A DNA stretch of 64,000 bases, taken from assembly GCA_018920345.1 (NCBI GenBank), contig JAHLMN010000005.1, positions 12,255 to 76,254 on the forward strand. The letters run 5' to 3'. A program made the translations under genes and the position numbers. Every line of letters begins with the position of its first letter. The stretch's first letter is position 1. Under the pieces are notes generated by a model that was not told the DNA's origin, did no database searches, and saw only the letters and a program-made list of their open reading frames with translations. Of this stretch, positions 28,001-56,786 are shown piece by piece. Source of the stretch: Candidatus Aenigmatarchaeota archaeon (lineage in GTDB: Archaea > Aenigmatarchaeota > Aenigmatarchaeia > CG10238-14).

Positions 28001-31000
28001 ATTAGAAAATGCAACTCTCTACATTAATGGTAATAGCAGCAGAATTATAGGTGGATGGGGAGAAACATTTAATTTTTCTGTAATGTTGAGAGATCGTTTT
28101 GGTAGAGACGTCACTGTCTATGCATGGCACAAAAAAGGTGCTGGGGAATATAGTTTAATAGGAAGCTGGACTTGTTATTCATGCTTGGAATGGAATCAAG
28201 CGAACTTTAGTTATGACTATATAGGCAGTGATATAAGCAGCTGGGAGTTCAAATTTAATGCAACTAATGCTGACGGCACTTCAACATTAAACGGTTATCC
28301 ATATACAGTTGAAGCAGATGACATAAATGTTGATTTTGCTTATCCAACCTATAACATGACTGTTAATAGAAGTGGAACAAGCAATTTTGTAATTTTGGTT
28401 TATGATAGAGACAATCAAACCTCTCCAGCTTATTTAATGCCTGGAGAAACAGATGAAGGTAAAGGAAGAATTTATATTTCAAAATTCGGTAGTAATACAA
28501 CATTTGATCTATCCCCTTCGCTTTCAGCAAACTCTACCGGTCATGTAGTAAGACAAATGAGCAATATAATACCGCAATGGTGTTTGGTAAGCGATTATTA
28601 TTTAGGACAAAATTATTGGAAGGGCGGGATAGAAGGTGCAGTGACTTACAAGAATAATGCAACAGGTATTTATCCATTTATGTTAGTAGGTGATCTATCA
28701 AATTCTTACTTAACACAACCAAACAACAAAAACTTTACAAGAGGCTCAACAATCAATTTAGACGGAGTCATAAAAGACGATTGCAATGATGTAAAAACAG
28801 ATTCTGCAAGATTTGGTGCAGAATATATATTGACGCATGAATCAACTGAATACAGAATTACAGCTTCTTTAACTTCAGCTTCCTTTGAAATTCCGTTAGA
28901 CGCACCGCTAGGCTGGTATAATATTACAATGATATCATTCTCAGAAGGTATTGATAATGACAAATATTGGAATGGCACATATTTCAAGCAAAATGCATTT
29001 TTCTTAGCATCCATACCTCAACTAAACAATGTTCAAGTTCAGCCATATCCAAAAGGAAGTTGGGAAACAAAACCATTCAACTTTTCTGTTTACATAACAA
29101 ACATAGATAATGAAACAGTTTTTGCTAGACTCTGGTTCAAAAACCAAACAGATGATTGGTTCTTGCAAAACACAACTACTTGCAGTAATTGCGACAATTA
29201 TTATTTCTTGACACAACACAACTTCACTTGCTATAATATTGGTGAATGGAAAGCACAATTTAATGCAACTTCAGCTACTTCATTTAGCAATTTGACAACA
29301 ACAATAACATTTAACATTACAAAGTCTGATATCTCTATATTACATTCTTCAGGAAATAACACAATTGTTAATAGAAGTGATGACGAACCAGCTAATACAA
29401 GAGAACTATCTGTTCAAATATTCAATCTAGTTACAAACAAAAATGAGACAGCAATATCAACATCAGACGTCTACACATGGGTATATGATGGCTCTACATA
29501 TATAGAACAGCTTGAGACAGCAAATACTTCACATTACTATTTCAATTTCAATCCATCTTGCAGTTATCAAGTAGGTAAACAAAAATGGAAAGTTAATACA
29601 ACTTCTAGCTGCTATTCAACAAACACATCAGAAGAATTTTACATAGATATTTATGGAAGTTTGAATAACACTTTGATTTTACCTGATGGATCTACAAATT
29701 ACACGCAAAATGATCAAATATTGCTTTTAGGCCAAATAACAGATGATTGCTCGCAACCAGTGTTAAATGCTAATGTAAGATTCAAACTTCAGTCTGGCTC
29801 AAACATCTATTACTGCCCATCTTCAGGTTATATAACAAATACAACAGGCAATTATTATTCATGTGTTTGGGATTCTTCCGGTAAACCAGGTGGTTTTTAC
29901 AATATTACAATGGAGTCAAACAAAGCATATCACAATAATGGAACAGACTATTTGCAAAACGCTTTCTTCCTCATAACACCTGTTCAGCTTATCTCACCGC
30001 AAGTTAGCTATCCTGGCGATGGTAGTTGGGGAGAGTTGCATAACTTTACTGTTTTTGTCACCCACTATGCTCCTGCAAATGTATGCTTGCTAGAAAGAAC
30101 ACCAACAACTCAATGGCAAGTAACAGAATGTAAATATGTTGAAAATCCACAAAATACATTTGTAAACTTTACAAGATACTATACTTGCGATGAATATCAA
30201 GCTTCAGCTTTGAGATATTTTGTATTTAATGCAAGTGAGCCAGGTGTTGCTGCAACATATTCAAACACAACCGAACAATCTCACGTCCTTGTTAAAAATG
30301 ACATAACAATAACTTATGTTTATGGCAACGAGTCTTTTGTCAATAGAAATGGCGCAAACACAACCAAATTTATATTGTTCGTGAATGATACAGACAGAAA
30401 CCAACCAGCATATTATTTATTAGGTGCTTCGGTAAAGCCACAAGTTTGGTTTAGAGTACACAATGCAACTAGCTATTTAGTTGATGGATATAATTCGACA
30501 AACACATCTGGATATGTCGAATATAATTTCAACCCATCTTGTAGTTATGAAGCAGGTAAATTTAAATGGCAAGGCTATACTTCTTCTGATTCTTGCTACA
30601 AAGATTATTCTGCAGAAGAGTATAATGTTACAATAATAGGTGATCTAGTTGCAAATGTCACATATCCAGATGGAATAACATACTTTAGAAATTTAGAGCT
30701 ATACATACCAATCAACGGCACAGTTATTGATGAGTGTAACTTACATTACAATGAAAATGCTACAGTAAACTTTACAGCAATTAGTGTTGGTTTTGGCACA
30801 GAATATCAATGCCTACCTGTTGATAATGCTGGTACAGGAAAGTATAATTGCACGCTAAATGCAACAACAATAGAAGAAGGTTGGTATAACGTAAGAATGA
30901 ATGCAACCAATGTGCAATATTATAATAACGCAACTATTTTAGCATCAAATAAATTTAGAGTCATTCAACAATGGGTTCCACCTATTTTAGAAAACGCAAC

Positions 31001-52887: not shown

Positions 52888-54291
52888 ATGGCTGACATTA
52901 ACGATTTAATTTCACAAAAAAAAGAGATAGAAACTCTTCTAAAATCATTAGAAGATGAATATGGAAGAGCTCAAATAAGTGATGCTACTTATAATGAGAT
53001 AAAAAGCAAAAACATGGAAAAATTAAAAAAAATTCAAGAAGAAATAGACAAGCTAGGAGGAAGCGAGCAAGAATCTGTTGAGAAACAAACACCTGTTTCT
53101 GAAGTACAACCACCTCAAGCTGTATCTCAACCCATATCTTCTACAAATTTGGCTATACAGCCTAAAACGACTGCTGATTCAACAAAAATAAAATCTGAAA
53201 TAATGCTGGAAATAAATAAAAAAATAGATACAGAAATAAACAAGCTAAATATTGAGTTAGAAAAGATAAAGGCATTTTTAGATGCTCAAAAAGATTTAAG
53301 AACAGCTACAGATGAAAAATTGCAAAGATTAACAGAAAGTATAGGAGAGCTAAGATCAATGCTTTTCCAAAAAGAGAGTGAAATAGACAAGATGAATGTA
53401 AAGGTTCAAAGGATAGAAGAAGTTTTTAATGATGTAAAGCCAGAGCAATATACAAGAGAGTTGCAGAAGAGAGATAAAGAATTAGCAAATCAAAATTTGC
53501 GTTTAGAGAAGTTAGAAAAAATGAGCTATGATATGGTTAAAGATGTTAATGATATGAGAAATGTTTTTAAGGAAATAGGGAGTGTAGAAAATCTTGTTAA
53601 TGTAAGTAAAAGAATAAACGAAAAGTTCATAAAAATGGAAAATATGCTGAAAGATGTTGAAAAGATATCTGAAAAATTAGAAAAGCATTTTGTTGAGATA
53701 AACAAAAAATTAGAAGAGTTTGAAGAGTACAAAAACAAGCAATTACAAATAGATGGGTTGTCAAAAGATTTGTTAAAGGCAGTAGATGATATAAATATAA
53801 AAATTGGAAAGTTGGCAAGCGAAGAAGAAGTATTTAAACTTAAAGAAATGTTGAACGATTTTACCAAAGATTTAGAAGATGTTAAAAAATCTGTAAAATC
53901 TGGAATACCTTTTGTCGGACCTTTGCCAGAGGAAATACAAAAGTTACAAGAAGAAAAAGACAAAATAAAAACATTTTTAGATTCTATTGACGAGCAATAC
54001 AAATCAAGAGCTATAAAAGAGGAAGAATACAAGAGAATAAGAGAAGCAAACTTGCAAAAGTTAGCTGATATAGATGCTAAAATAAGGGAAAGTATAGAAA
54101 AGATAAAAGGAATACCTAATGTTCAGCCACAACCTATACCACAACCAGTTCAGCAGACACCTCAAATACAAGAGCAACCTCAGCAAGAAGATAAAGCTTC
54201 AAAATTGCTATCAGAATTAAAAGATTTGTACAAAAAAGGTTTGATAAGTGAAAAGGCATATCAAAAGACATCTAGATTACTTATCAAATAG
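52888..54291 (+). CDS. Long coiled-coil protein with three SHOCT-like motifs
   Basis: 467 aa, predominantly heptad-like charged repeats. SHOCT-like motifs: N-terminal LLKSLEDEYGRAQISDATYNEIKSKNMEKL, internal FLDSIDEQYKSRAIKEEEYKRIREANLQKL, C-terminal LLSELKDLYKKGLISEKAYQKTSRLL. Starts 46 nt after the giant gene on the same strand. Confidence 0.65.
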   Translation: MADINDLISQKKEIETLLKSLEDEYGRAQISDATYNEIKSKNMEKLKKIQEEIDKLGGSEQESVEKQTPVSEVQPPQAVSQPISSTNLAIQPKTTADSTKIKSEIMLEINKKIDTEINKLNIELEKIKAFLDAQKDLRTATDEKLQRLTESIGELRSMLFQKESEIDKMNVKVQRIEEVFNDVKPEQYTRELQKRDKELANQNLRLEKLEKMSYDMVKDVNDMRNVFKEIGSVENLVNVSKRINEKFIKMENMLKDVEKISEKLEKHFVEINKKLEEFEEYKNKQLQIDGLSKDLLKAVDDINIKIGKLASEEEVFKLKEMLNDFTKDLEDVKKSVKSGIPFVGPLPEEIQKLQEEKDKIKTFLDSIDEQYKSRAIKEEEYKRIREANLQKLADIDAKIRESIEKIKGIPNVQPQPIPQPVQQTPQIQEQPQQEDKASKLLSELKDLYKKGLISEKAYQKTSRLLIK

Positions 54292-54589
54292 ATTTTTTAC
54301 CAAAAATATAATTTCCCCCCTCTATTCTTAAAGCCTTACCATTAATAATTGCATCGGCAATTTTTTTTCTAGCAGATGAAACAATTCTGTGAAATGTTGG
54401 TTGTGAAACATTCATTTTTTTGGCAGCTTCTTCTTGCTCTAAATCCAAAAAATCCTTTAACCTTAAAGCTTCAATTTCATCGACTGTTAATACAACTTCT
54501 TCCAAATCCACAATTCTTAAACCAGCAGGCTTAAAGTAAGTAATATTAGGCTTAAAAAAAATTCTTCTACATCTTCTAGGTCTTGGCAT
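54284..54589 (-). CDS. DUF134-family putative DNA-binding protein
   Basis: MPRPRRCRRI...KPAGL...LTVDEIEALRLKDFLDLEQEEAAKKMNVSQPTFHRIVSSARKKIADAIINGKAL is the canonical DUF134 pattern. Confidence 0.8.
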   Translation of the reverse strand: MPRPRRCRRIFFKPNITYFKPAGLRIVDLEEVVLTVDEIEALRLKDFLDLEQEEAAKKMNVSQPTFHRIVSSARKKIADAIINGKALRIEGGNYIFGKKSI

Positions 54590-54631
54590 AATTAAATAAA
54601 ATATTTTTTAGCTTAAATAATTAAAAAAGTC

Positions 54632-54904
54632 TTAACCCAAAACCTTCAATTTATTTTCAATTTCCTCCTTTTCTTTTTCTAGGATTTTTATTTCCTCCTT
54701 TATTTCCTCCAATTCTTCTTGTAAAAATTTTTTTTGCTCGTCCATCGACAATTCGGGCATTCTGCTGTAATACCAAGGTTGCAATCTCCAAAACCTTCTG
54801 TTTTTGAAGCCTCTTCTCCATGCTAAACCCTTTCCACATGGACCTAAACCCCTTCCAGTTAAAGGTCCTTCTCCAAACGGACCAGTCCCATCTCTTCCAG
54901 GCAT
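54632..54904 (-). CDS. DUF5320-family protein (frequent partner of DUF134)
   Basis: MPGRDGTGPFGEGPLTGRGLGPCGKG... plus a C-terminal coiled coil. Start chosen at the second Met (54904). The tracked start 54919 would include the upstream repeat. Confidence 0.75.
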   Translation of the reverse strand: MPGRDGTGPFGEGPLTGRGLGPCGKGLAWRRGFKNRRFWRLQPWYYSRMPELSMDEQKKFLQEELEEIKEEIKILEKEKEEIENKLKVLG

Positions 54905-54917
54905 GTTTTTCACCTCC

Positions 54918-54963
54918 ATATTGAATATATATTCATAATTTATATTGAATATATATTCATAAT
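54918..54963. promoter_or_regulatory. Perfect 22-bp tandem direct repeat ATATTGAATATATATTCATAAT x2 (period 24) immediately upstream of the DUF5320/DUF134 operon
   Basis: Copies at 54918-54939 and 54942-54963, read directly from the sequence. Each contains a TATA-like ATATATAT core. Confidence 0.55.
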
Positions 54964-55005
54964 AGTATTTAAACTTATCGTTTTATTGATTCAAAATGTA
55001 TAAAA

Positions 55006-55275
55006 CTAAAAGAAATATTTCATTATTCTATTTGCGATTTCTTTAGCTTTTTCCTCTTCTTTAATACCTCTTATCATGATTTTATTGTTCTTAGAGATAG
55101 ATATTTTTGCTTGACCAATATCTATTAAAGTTAAAAAATCGGTATCAGTTAGAATATTTCCATCAAATTCTTTTAAAATAACTTTTATTAATAATTTTCT
55201 ATCAATTTTTCCTTGAGGTATTATTTCAAATGAGGCATCAGTTTTACATGGTTTAAACATAAAGTAAACTTTCAT
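55006..55275 (-). CDS. Hypothetical small protein (89 aa)
   Basis: ORF with ordinary composition, divergent from the THUMP gene. No confident family. Confidence 0.45.
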   Translation of the reverse strand: MKVYFMFKPCKTDASFEIIPQGKIDRKLLIKVILKEFDGNILTDTDFLTLIDIGQAKISISKNNKIMIRGIKEEEKAKEIANRIMKYFF

Positions 55276-55315
55276 ATCAAAATATTATTTAAATTAAACT
55301 AAAAAACATATTGAT

Positions 55316-56119
55316 ATGAAATACAATTTATTAATTGCAAGATTTTCTGAAATAGCAATAAAATCACATCCTGTTAGAAAAAGACTTTTGAAAATATTGA
55401 TAAAAAACATAAAAAAAGCGATGTTAAAAAACAAAATAGAGGCAGTCGTATATGCTAAATGGGAAAGAATATTTGTTGAAACAAAAAACATAAAAAAAGC
55501 AACAAACATCTTAAAACATATTTTTGGAATAGTTTCGATATCACCAGTAATAAAATTAAAATTATCTAATCTGGAAAAAACTATAAAAAATTATGCTCAT
55601 ATGGCTAAAAATAAAAACTTTGCTGTAAGAGTTAAAAGAGTAGGAAATCACGATTTTACAAGCAGAGATATGGAAAAAAAACTAGGTTCTATAATTTTAA
55701 GTAAAATTAATGCTAAAGTTAACTTAGAAAAACCTGATATTACATTTTATGTAGAAATAAGAAATGATGACGCATATTTATATTTTGATGTGATTCCTGG
55801 TCCAGGTGGAATGCCTTTAGGAAGTGAGCAAAAGGTTTTTTGTGAAATTAAAAATAAAAGAGATCTAGTAGCTTGTTGGTTAATGATGAAGAGAGGTTGC
55901 AAAGTTGTCATATTTCCAAAAATATCTATAAAACCATTAAAAAAATGGCTATATGGTGAGCATAAGATAATAAAGAAATTAGATGAATTTTGCTTGAAAT
56001 TACCAAAGGTATCAGGAGATTCTTTGAAGAAAATCAAAATAAATGGTATAAAATTTTATCCAATCTGCTGCTTGACACAGGAAGAGATAGATAAAATATT
56101 TAAAAAAATAAATAATTAA
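55316..56119 (+). CDS. ThiI-like THUMP-domain protein with degenerate PP-loop
   Basis: The N-terminal ferredoxin-like and THUMP region resembles ThiI (MKYNLLIARFSEIAIKS..., FAVRVKRVGNHDFTS..., EKPDITFYVEIRNDDAYLY). VACWLMMKRGCKVV matches the ThiI segment after the PP-loop. The SGGxDS motif position reads EIKNKRDL instead. At 267 aa the protein is also shorter than ThiI. Confidence 0.6.
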   Translation: MKYNLLIARFSEIAIKSHPVRKRLLKILIKNIKKAMLKNKIEAVVYAKWERIFVETKNIKKATNILKHIFGIVSISPVIKLKLSNLEKTIKNYAHMAKNKNFAVRVKRVGNHDFTSRDMEKKLGSIILSKINAKVNLEKPDITFYVEIRNDDAYLYFDVIPGPGGMPLGSEQKVFCEIKNKRDLVACWLMMKRGCKVVIFPKISIKPLKKWLYGEHKIIKKLDEFCLKLPKVSGDSLKKIKINGIKFYPICCLTQEEIDKIFKKINN

Positions 56120-56121
56120 TT

Positions 56122-56493
56122 GTGAAAAGAGCAACAAAAAAACAAATAGATGAGGCAATAGATAAAGTATTCCAAGAAAGAAATTATATAAAAACTTTAA
56201 AGCAAGTTCACGAATATGTTAATGAAAAAATAAAACCTGTTAGAATTTCTTTACCAAGACTTAAAAAAATTCTTTTAAAAAGAAAAGATATAGTTGTAAA
56301 AGTAAAAAAGAGAGAGTTAAAAAACAAAAAAATAGAAAATTGTCCTGTTTGTGGTTGTGAATTTGAAAAAATTTTTGGTTTAGATGCTTTTGGACAAAAA
56401 AGACACATAGGCTATAAATGTAAATGTTGTAATTTTAAAATAGGGCTATTTTATTCTGTGCCTTACGAGTATTTATTTAAGAGAAAAGAATAA
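56122..56493 (+). CDS. Zinc-ribbon hypothetical protein (GTG start)
   Basis: CPVCGCEF...CKCCNF double CxxC, and a basic N-terminal half. Confidence 0.5.
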   Translation: MKRATKKQIDEAIDKVFQERNYIKTLKQVHEYVNEKIKPVRISLPRLKKILLKRKDIVVKVKKRELKNKKIENCPVCGCEFEKIFGLDAFGQKRHIGYKCKCCNFKIGLFYSVPYEYLFKRKE

Positions 56494-56513
56494 ATAATTT
56501 TATCTTAATATTA

Positions 56514-56786
56514 TTGGTGCCAATATCGGTGATAATAATGGTTTATAGAGGAAATAATGGTAAAATTTATACGGTTGATCAAAAAGGTCAATTAACAGAT
56601 GAGGAAGGAAGAAAAATTTTTTTTACAGGTACAAGGAGAGCATTATTGACTTGTCCAGATGGTAGTGAGAGAGAAACACAAATATCTTATTTTCAAGGTG
56701 TTATAGGTGAATGTGTGGATGAAAAAGGAAAGATACTAGATGTATTATATTCAGGAACTAAAATAAAAATAGACCCTAAATTTTAA
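56514..56786 (+). CDS. Hypothetical small protein
   Basis: 90-aa ORF. No family recognised. Confidence 0.4.
   Translation: MVPISVIIMVYRGNNGKIYTVDQKGQLTDEEGRKIFFTGTRRALLTCPDGSERETQISYFQGVIGECVDEKGKILDVLYSGTKIKIDPKF

Follow-up and report, generated by a model that had tools for sequence, protein, structure and literature searches.

What do two exact copies of a 22-nucleotide (nt) sequence do upstream of a small archaeal operon? The operon lies on the minus strand of a 64,000-nt stretch of Candidatus Aenigmatarchaeota archaeon DNA (contig JAHLMN010000005.1; hereafter the window, in whose coordinates positions are given) and consists of DUF5320 and DUF134 only. An initial annotation had read the repeat as either duplicated promoter elements or tandem operator sites. 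We found that each copy encloses a perfect 14-bp palindrome, TGAATATATATTCA, and the initial annotation missed this palindrome as the unit, as well as its identity across phyla and two domains and its co-variation with the recognition helix of DUF134. These comparative data suggest, with a probability that we place at roughly 0.8, that the boxes are DUF134 binding sites controlling the DUF5320-DUF134 operon. They would most likely serve as tandem operators for DUF134 that act by autorepression, a proposal that we hold with somewhat less confidence than the binding itself; the mechanism would be that of a classical autoregulated helix-turn-helix (HTH)-operator pair.

Two palindromic boxes at the DUF5320-DUF134 promoter

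The two copies of ATATTGAATATATATTCATAAT are located at 54918-54939 and 54942-54963 and are separated by a TT spacer, giving a 24-bp period; the exactness and the 2-bp separation are thus as originally described. The pair is the top-scoring tandem repeat of the 64-kb window (Tandem Repeats Finder score 92), and a search allowing up to three mismatches returned 2 occurrences of the 22-nt sequence against 0.02 expected by chance. The half-sites of the palindrome inside each copy are spaced 7-0-7, and a symmetric 14-bp palindrome occurring twice in the window has the size of a site for an HTH dimer. The predicted promoter-proximal operator, box 1, occupies 54946-54959 and the predicted promoter-distal operator, box 2, occupies 54922-54935; both are perfect copies of the palindrome and neither is assigned to a strand. 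A relaxed pattern found no further boxes in the rest of the 64-kb window, and a match with two mismatches at 28820, inside a giant open reading frame (ORF), was rejected as being at chance level.

Archaeal promoter rules apply to the window because its DUF134 protein shows 100% identity to a protein of an NCBI Candidatus Aenigmarchaeota metagenome-assembled genome. An archaeal TATA box, TTTAAATA (54966-54973, minus strand), ends 6 nt before box 1 and is abutted upstream by a purine-rich sequence, ACGATAAG (54974-54981, minus strand), which resembles a transcription factor B recognition element (BRE) and is the weaker part of this assignment. The centre of an archaeal TATA box lies ~26-27 nt upstream of the transcription start. 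On this assumed geometry (centre at ~-26/-27), transcription is predicted to start near 54943 on the minus strand, which would place box 1 at ~-16 to -3 and box 2 at ~+9 to +22, in the 5' untranslated region. The Shine-Dalgarno sequence GGAGGTG (54911-54917, minus strand) would then lie at ~+27 to +33 and the ATG of DUF5320 (54904, minus strand) at ~+40. The G+C content of the window is ~30%.

The initial annotation had also placed the repeat immediately before the start of DUF5320; it does lie upstream, but rather than abutting the gene it ends 13 nt short of the likely start. The ORF caller extends DUF5320 to 54919, where the last AT of the repeat and the first G of GGAGGTG form an ATG. The true start is very probably the ATG at 54904, giving a gene of 90 aa at 54632-54904 on the minus strand, because the Pfam profile begins at MPGRDG, the family consensus starts with MP..DgTGP and GGAGGTG stands 6 nt before this ATG. 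Read in the frame ATGAATATATATTCA, the operator translates as M-N-I-Y-S, which is why ORF callers extend DUF5320 into it. DUF5320 ORFs run into their own operators in loci L008, L028, L033, L035 and L067, as does the extra stretch 54905-54919 in the window, and over-extended starts are likely a systematic start-codon annotation error for the family.

The proposed box-binding protein, DUF134 (54284-54589, minus strand; 101 aa), is a stand-alone HTH protein of the family Pfam PF02001, also designated UPF0251 and COG1342. It matches this profile over residues 3-95 with 110.1 bits (cut-off 27; E 8.5e-32), and the motifs PRPRxCRR, YFKPxG and SQPTF, invariant in the family alignment, are all found in it. 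Pfam also returned a weak match to Sigma70_r4_2 (E 1.5e-5) and further HTH matches to Sigma70_r4, HTH_10 and Xre-like profiles, while NCBIfam names the protein 'hypothetical protein' and a sequence search of the PDB gave no solved structure of the family. The ORF at 54632-54919 (minus strand) matches DUF5320 (Pfam PF17253) with 49.7 bits (cut-off 27; E 9e-13), the profile starting at residue 6 (MPGRDG), and its N-terminal motif is MPGRDGTGPxGxGPxTGRGxGxC. Sequences collected from the other loci give the family consensus MP..DgTGP.G.Gp.TGRG.G.C, followed by a charged helical tail. DUF5320 comes first in the two-gene unit and is separated from DUF134 by a gap of 42 nt, in which no terminator-like site was found. 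The description of DUF5320-DUF134 as a widely conserved gene pair was borne out across the surveyed loci. Our literature search found no paper on the function of DUF134, DUF5320 or UPF0251, nor on the box sequences.

Conservation of the box and its co-variation with DUF134

The presence of the repeat at orthologous loci had been named as a check on the operator proposal, and there it is present. We fetched contigs for the three closest DUF134 proteins (88%, 83% and 83% identity); the contig encoding the exact window protein was not found by look-up. Two of these loci are syntenic with the window. The third has another neighbourhood, beside superoxide dismutase and DsbA genes, and carries EncFtn-like and methyltransferase genes between DUF5320 and DUF134. 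The layout common to the closest loci is TTTAAATA, 5-6 nt, box 1, ~10 nt, box 2, 3-4 nt, Shine-Dalgarno sequence, ATG. The four aligned Aenigmarchaeota promoters are near-invariant from the BRE-like element to the ATG, the TATA box itself being invariant, and diverge freely upstream; their Shine-Dalgarno sequence is GGAGGTG, except for TGAGGTG in L006, and most loci of the wider set described below have one as well. Because flanks and spacer vary among loci, the conserved unit is the palindrome rather than the 22-nt direct repeat, so that the initial annotation was correct about the exactness of the copies but not about the unit. In L003 a third box, TGAATAGTTATTCA, precedes an EncFtn-like gene.

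A breadth scan based on the DUF134 alignment, with one genome per species, added 80 further loci from six DPANN phyla, Methanosarcinales, Bathyarchaeota, Thermoplasmatota, Halobacteriota and several bacterial groups. The exact TGAATATATATTCA was found in 54 of the 84 non-redundant DUF134 loci, whereas by our own estimate from base composition ~0.02 exact occurrences would be expected by chance in the 471 kb examined. The archaea that carry it are Woese-, Pace-, Aenigm-, Micr-, Nano- and Iainarchaeota, Methanosarcinales, Thermoplasmatota and Halobacteriota, and it also occurs in deltaproteobacteria, so that the same palindrome is present in both domains. Fifty of 57 exact boxes lie 0-150 nt (median ~31) upstream of the first operon gene, and where DUF5320 is not upstream (L069, L070, L076, L077, L083) the box precedes DUF134 itself. 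The control DNA, 347 kb lying downstream of DUF134, contained no box of any of the classes defined below at up to one mismatch. Aligned on the box, the loci give the consensus cGAAA-N2-TTTAWATA-N5/6-TTA-TGAATATATATTCA-T(T/A)A(T), within which the palindrome extends to the 20-bp TTATGAATATATATTCATAA. A site conserved at the promoter of its own operon in orthologous loci is what is expected of an autoregulated factor.

The box also changes together with the protein. The recognition helix of the window DUF134 reads S62-Q-P-T-F-H-R68, with S-Q-P-T-F (62-66) invariant in the DUF134 alignment, and several box-less bacterial DUF134 proteins carry SRPT in place of SQPT. These SRPT-type proteins were used to seed a metagenome scan, which yielded 80 more loci. 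Three classes of box were distinguished, namely class A, TGAATATATATTCA; class B, TGAGCATATGCTCA; and class C, TGGACATATGTCCA or TGAACATATGTTCA. Proteins with the helix SQPTFHR are accompanied by box A in 49 loci and by no box in 10, other SQPT..R variants by box A in 13 and no box in 3, SRPTFQR by box B in 33 and no box in 9, and SRPTFHR by box C in 8 and no box in 11; the 7 loci with SRPTYHR have none. Cross-class pairs of helix and box number zero, and under a relaxed match box C turns up in more SRPTFHR loci. The three classes share the frame TTATG-NNNAT|ATNNN-CATAA and differ only at the inner half-site positions.

An AlphaFold2 (AF2) model of DUF134 (mean pLDDT 76) has helices at 36-47, 52-58 and 63-83, and the varying residues 63 and 67 stand at the start of 63-83, the long third helix of the HTH and the predicted recognition helix. 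Gln-to-Arg replacement alongside A/T-to-G/C changes is expected of direct base readout, and this is our main argument that DUF134 reads the box. Such co-variation of a site with DNA-reading residues is again what an autoregulated factor should display, with few independent events behind it. Upstream of SRPTYHR-type DUF134 genes no convincing palindrome was found in L071, L073, L093, L094, L097, L102, L111 and L114. In this subgroup either the operator lies elsewhere or there is no autoregulation. Several of the upstream regions have a similar run, GGAGTG, immediately ahead of the ORF.

The position of the box relative to the core promoter is equally regular. In 48 of 49 archaeal loci the box is preceded, at a distance of 4-7 nt (mode 6), by a TATA-like 8-mer, which in turn follows purine-rich BRE-like sequence, cGAAA-type 7-mers being the commonest sequence before the TATA box across the loci. 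A promoter scan of three deltaproteobacterial loci found a sigma-70 promoter matching 11 of 12 positions, TTGACA-17/18-TATATT, with the -10 hexamer TATATT inside the box, and the class C box comes immediately after the -10 element. In both domains, then, part of the DNA on which RNA polymerase must sit is covered by the site, and this is the geometry of a repressor.

A second box, defined by at least 10 of 12 matching half-site positions, is found at a start-to-start distance of +23 to +25 in 16 of the 53 exact-box loci, and ~70% of loci have a single box. At other offsets from -45 to +60 none was found among the 53 loci, apart from a single weak match at -16. Second boxes mostly keep TGAATA..TATTCA and vary in the centre, and both boxes are perfect only in the window and its two closest relatives. 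The restriction of second boxes to +23 to +25 indicates that the tandem is an ancestral, phased feature, of which the window has the strongest form.

Proposed autorepression and its alternatives

We propose that DUF134, a small HTH protein of the sigma-region-4 or DeoR DNA-binding-domain type, binds each 14-20 bp palindrome (TTA-TGAATATATATTCA-TAA) as a dimer. Box 1 would lie between the TATA box and the transcription start, and box 2 would follow 24 bp further on, in the initially transcribed region and immediately ahead of the ribosome-binding site. Occupied boxes would allow TBP and TFB to bind but would block the recruitment or escape of RNA polymerase, and the DUF5320-DUF134 operon would thus be negatively autoregulated. 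Two perfect sites may provide tight, probably cooperative repression, and the repressor might be released by a signal, likely metal- or redox-related, acting via the conserved N-terminal Cys of DUF134 and/or DUF5320.

Several characterised systems resemble this proposal in part. Tandem operators of archaeal repressors located downstream of the TATA box are known for NrpR at the nif promoter of Methanococcus maripaludis and for MDR1 of Archaeoglobus fulgidus. As in the window, palindromic operators in these systems begin immediately downstream of the TATA box and extend over the start region, with a second operator a few helical turns downstream. MDR1 is moreover autoregulated and metal-dependent and is encoded next to a metal transporter; it acts by preventing the recruitment of polymerase and not the binding of TBP/TFB. 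The proteins differ, NrpR being a winged-helix protein with NrpR domains and MDR1 DtxR-like, and so do the operator sequences; neither system is known to share one operator across Archaea and Bacteria. In Staphylococcus aureus, CzrA, a small dimeric HTH repressor of the ArsR/SmtB type, is co-operonic with the CDF pump CzrB and recognises an inverted repeat that lies across its own promoter. The orders box-CDF-DUF134 (L013, L023), with the CDF pump directly after the box, and box-DUF5320-CDF-DUF134 (L027, L065) follow the same logic, although the likeness extends to operon logic only. The DUF134 HTH is of the sigma-r4/DeoR-DBD type and follows a PRPRxCRR beta-sheet, the window operon is without a pump, and membership of DUF134 in ArsR/SmtB was rejected, as no HTH_5/ArsR Pfam match was obtained.

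By sequence and by fold, the DUF134 HTH is matched best by the DNA-binding domain of Bacillus subtilis DeoR (SorC family; PDB 7bhy) and by sigma-70 region 4 (2h27); the nearest solved folds returned by Foldseek are the DeoR DNA-binding domain with its operator and an extracytoplasmic function (ECF) sigma region 4. The match to 7bhy is marginal in sequence (phmmer E 0.015), and the Foldseek matches have a TM-score (target) of ~0.7 over 40-51 residues with a weak E of 0.06-0.1. These matches cover the three-helix core only, whereas the DUF134 model has its own N-terminal beta-sheet, carrying PRPRxCRR before the HTH, and a C-terminal strand.

Several points weigh against the proposal and should be considered together. 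The evidence for the pairing of DUF134 and box is wholly comparative, position is the sole guide to the sign of regulation, and the nature of the signal is guesswork because the window DUF134 is without an obvious sensor domain. The 24 bp between box centres correspond to ~2.3 helical turns, so that two dimers would sit on different faces of the DNA, which is not the textbook geometry for cooperativity. There are few independent co-variation events, since there are about three specificity classes, and the class B and C loci are metagenome contigs without taxonomy. Finally, at the stringency used, no box was found in 10 of 59 SQPTFHR loci or in any of the 7 SRPTYHR loci.

The alternative that best survives these data, although we consider it improbable, is that DUF134 binds the boxes as an activator or as a sigma- or TFB-like promoter-recognition factor that recruits the transcription machinery. 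The resemblance of its HTH to sigma-70 region 4, both in the Sigma70_r4_2 match and in the presence of ECF sigma region 4 among the top folds, is consistent with such a role, as is the -10 hexamer inside the deltaproteobacterial box, which implies that the protein touches core promoter DNA. Sigma region 4, however, reads the asymmetric -35 element rather than the -10 or start region and does so within polymerase, whereas palindromic sites imply a free, symmetric dimer and not a polymerase subunit. Membership in the sigma-70 family was itself rejected, as the 101 aa contain only a region-4-like HTH and score 26.9 against TIGR02937 (cut-off 42.9). The archaeal box, furthermore, lies downstream of a complete BRE/TATA, and box 2 would fall in the transcribed leader. 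Characterised archaeal repressors bind downstream of the BRE/TATA, while activators usually bind upstream of the BRE.

It is less probable again that the boxes are operators of another factor, such as a metalloregulator of the Fur/Zur/PerR type, and that DUF134 is merely one of the genes it regulates. The boxes of such regulators are, like the present one, AT-rich inverted repeats with TGA...TCA ends over promoters of metal and oxidative-stress genes; the 7+7 arrangement recalls the Fur motif, and the CDF, ZIP, EncFtn-like and rubrerythrin genes co-operonic with DUF134 at other loci are typical of Fur-family regulons. The Fur 7-1-7 motif is TGATAATNATTATCA. The spacing in the window is 7-0-7 instead of 7-1-7 (or a 19-bp arrangement), the Fur fold differs from that of DUF134, and the class of box switches exactly with the DUF134 recognition helix, whose residues an unrelated factor would not track. 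On half-site spacing and co-variation, we rejected assignment to the Fur-family boxes. Whatever the neighbouring genes, the box also goes with DUF134 in many phyla of two domains, and no Fur-family gene was found in the operon flanks by a Pfam scan of 52888-56786.

The possibility raised by the initial annotation that the repeat is a duplicated core promoter, with two TATA-like elements giving two transcription starts, has slighter prospects still, while its other suggestion, tandem operator sites, is strongly supported by the box at orthologous loci and by the co-variation. A TATATA centre is present in each copy and coincides with the predicted -10 hexamer in deltaproteobacterial relatives. 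The window nonetheless has its separate, canonical BRE/TATA, TTTAAATA, upstream of box 1, in the same geometry as in 48 of 49 archaeal loci. In L031 and L011, moreover, the box ends only 14-17 nt before the ATG with the Shine-Dalgarno sequence in between, so that a TATA element inside the box would start transcripts downstream of their Shine-Dalgarno sequence. We rejected the box as an archaeal TATA core element because a separate BRE/TATA is kept at a fixed distance and because these loci would lose the Shine-Dalgarno sequence. The single box of ~70% of loci, the conserved outer TGA...TCA and the co-variation with the HTH are likewise foreign to a duplicated TATA box.

The weakest alternative, an RNA-level element in which the two copies pair into a leader hairpin by the ribosome-binding site and control translation or mRNA stability, can draw on a copy-to-copy hairpin into which 54965-54895 (minus strand) folds (-18.5 kcal/mol, z-score -4.1), but we dismiss it as a trivial and non-conserved consequence of two palindromes, any two copies of which fold so, given that it requires both copies to be transcribed when the predicted transcription start is downstream of copy 1, that most loci (~70%) have one box only, that the sequence is invariant over more than 50 species with no compensatory changes, and that the Shine-Dalgarno sequence is outside the long stem.

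Gene neighbourhoods and possible physiology

Convergent with DUF134 in the window is a gene for a 467-aa coiled-coil protein (52888-54291, plus strand) with weak SMC/Rad50-type and SHOCT-like matches; the 3' ends of the two genes overlap by 8 bp (54284-54291), and this gene adjoins DUF134 in L001 and L006 as well. Directly upstream of the operator region, an 89-aa ORF (55006-55275, minus strand) has no Pfam or NCBIfam match and is found with the same size and position in L001, L002, L006 and L007. An inverted repeat at 55270-55321, with 22-nt arms that are 86% complementary and 8 nt apart, covers the divergent starts, 40 bp apart, of this ORF and of a THUMP/ThiI-like gene (55316-56119, plus strand), where it could form a bidirectional control region for both genes or, alternatively, two leaderless starts. 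A single ORF of 11,259 aa (19062-52841, plus strand), rich in Asn, Thr and Ser and with repeated Ig-like-looking modules, takes up over half of the window. A homologous gene fragment in L001 has DUF87, HerA-C and T4SS-DNA_transf ATPase matches at its C-terminal end, and the appearance of the ORF suggests a giant surface protein or ATPase from a DPANN archaeon.

At other loci, the same-strand genes between or after DUF5320 and DUF134 encode ArsP-type split permeases, Nitro_FeMo-Co (NifX-like) proteins, CDF efflux pumps and EncFtn-like ferritins, as well as ZIP transporters, rubrerythrin, desulfoferrodoxin, thioredoxin/DsbD-like proteins and ParA/NUBPL ATPases with 4Fe-4S motifs. Loci of the bacterial type combine DUF5320 with Nitro_FeMo-Co and ferredoxin domains, DUF364/DUF4213 ('putative heavy-metal chelation') and NUBPL ATPases. 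In L003, L030 and L036, a separate box accompanies the EncFtn-like gene. These co-operonic genes suggest that the controlled process is metal or Fe-S/redox homeostasis.

Fusion forms of DUF134 carry a Nitro_FeMo-Co domain, a Cys4 zinc-ribbon-like tail or an N-terminal DUF5320 motif. The first of these forms, with a C-terminal Nitro_FeMo-Co (NifX-like) domain, occurs in four bacterial loci (L053, L069, L076 and L077), and in L022 (2944-3285) an N-terminal DUF5320 motif, MPQGDGTGPMGQGPRTG, is joined directly to DUF134. These two fusions favour a link, whether physical or functional, among DUF134, DUF5320 and NifX-like proteins. The Cys4 tail, C.CPKCG...H.RG.PC....CPKCG (weak zinc-ribbon matches), ends many long DUF134 proteins (L017:954-1451, L034, L070). 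The same tail ends the CDF pump of L013 (2700-2996) and is found as a stand-alone 50-aa ORF at L041:4602-4754. It may be a metal-sensing module common to regulator and transporter. Together, neighbourhoods and fusions point to sensing through Cys residues or a cofactor.

The families found with DUF134 and DUF5320 at other loci are also those that make up the orange protein (ORP) complex of Desulfovibrio, which consists of Nitro_FeMo-Co proteins and ParA/NUBPL ATPases with two 4Fe-4S motifs (PMC6345978, PMC8359166). The ORP system is described as anaerobe-specific and possibly archaeal in origin, and its known regulator OrpR is a sigma-54 enhancer-binding activator restricted to delta-Proteobacteria (PMC6345978, PMC8359166). 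DUF134 has no relationship to OrpR, and the promoters over which its box lies are of the sigma-70 type or archaeal; we hypothesize that DUF134 may be a regulator of ORP-type genes outside delta-Proteobacteria.

A broader reading that joins these observations is tentative, and we regard it as more doubtful than not. On this reading, DUF134 and its palindrome would form a portable cassette that works unchanged on TBP/TFB and sigma-70 promoters and has passed from domain to domain along with its operator. DUF134 would be the long-missing regulator, outside delta-Proteobacteria, of anaerobe-specific ORP-like and metal-homeostasis genes (Nitro_FeMo-Co, Fe-S ParA ATPases, CDF/ZIP, EncFtn), and DUF5320 would be its obligatory small partner, whether as sensor, co-repressor or primary effector. 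A two-residue code, Q63/H67 versus R63/Q67 versus R63/H67, would set the half-site.

If DUF134 does read the boxes, an orphan family that, like DUF5320, is widespread in anaerobic archaea and bacteria would gain a concrete, testable function and a recognition code. The system is made testable by a 20-bp operator, a predicted mode of action at the promoter, three operator classes that go with two helix residues and a set of putatively co-regulated genes. It would also be a rare case of one operator sequence lying over core promoter elements in Archaea and Bacteria, useful for comparing how one repressor interferes with two initiation machineries, and the box may serve as a sequence tag for annotating the regulon in DPANN and other uncultured lineages.

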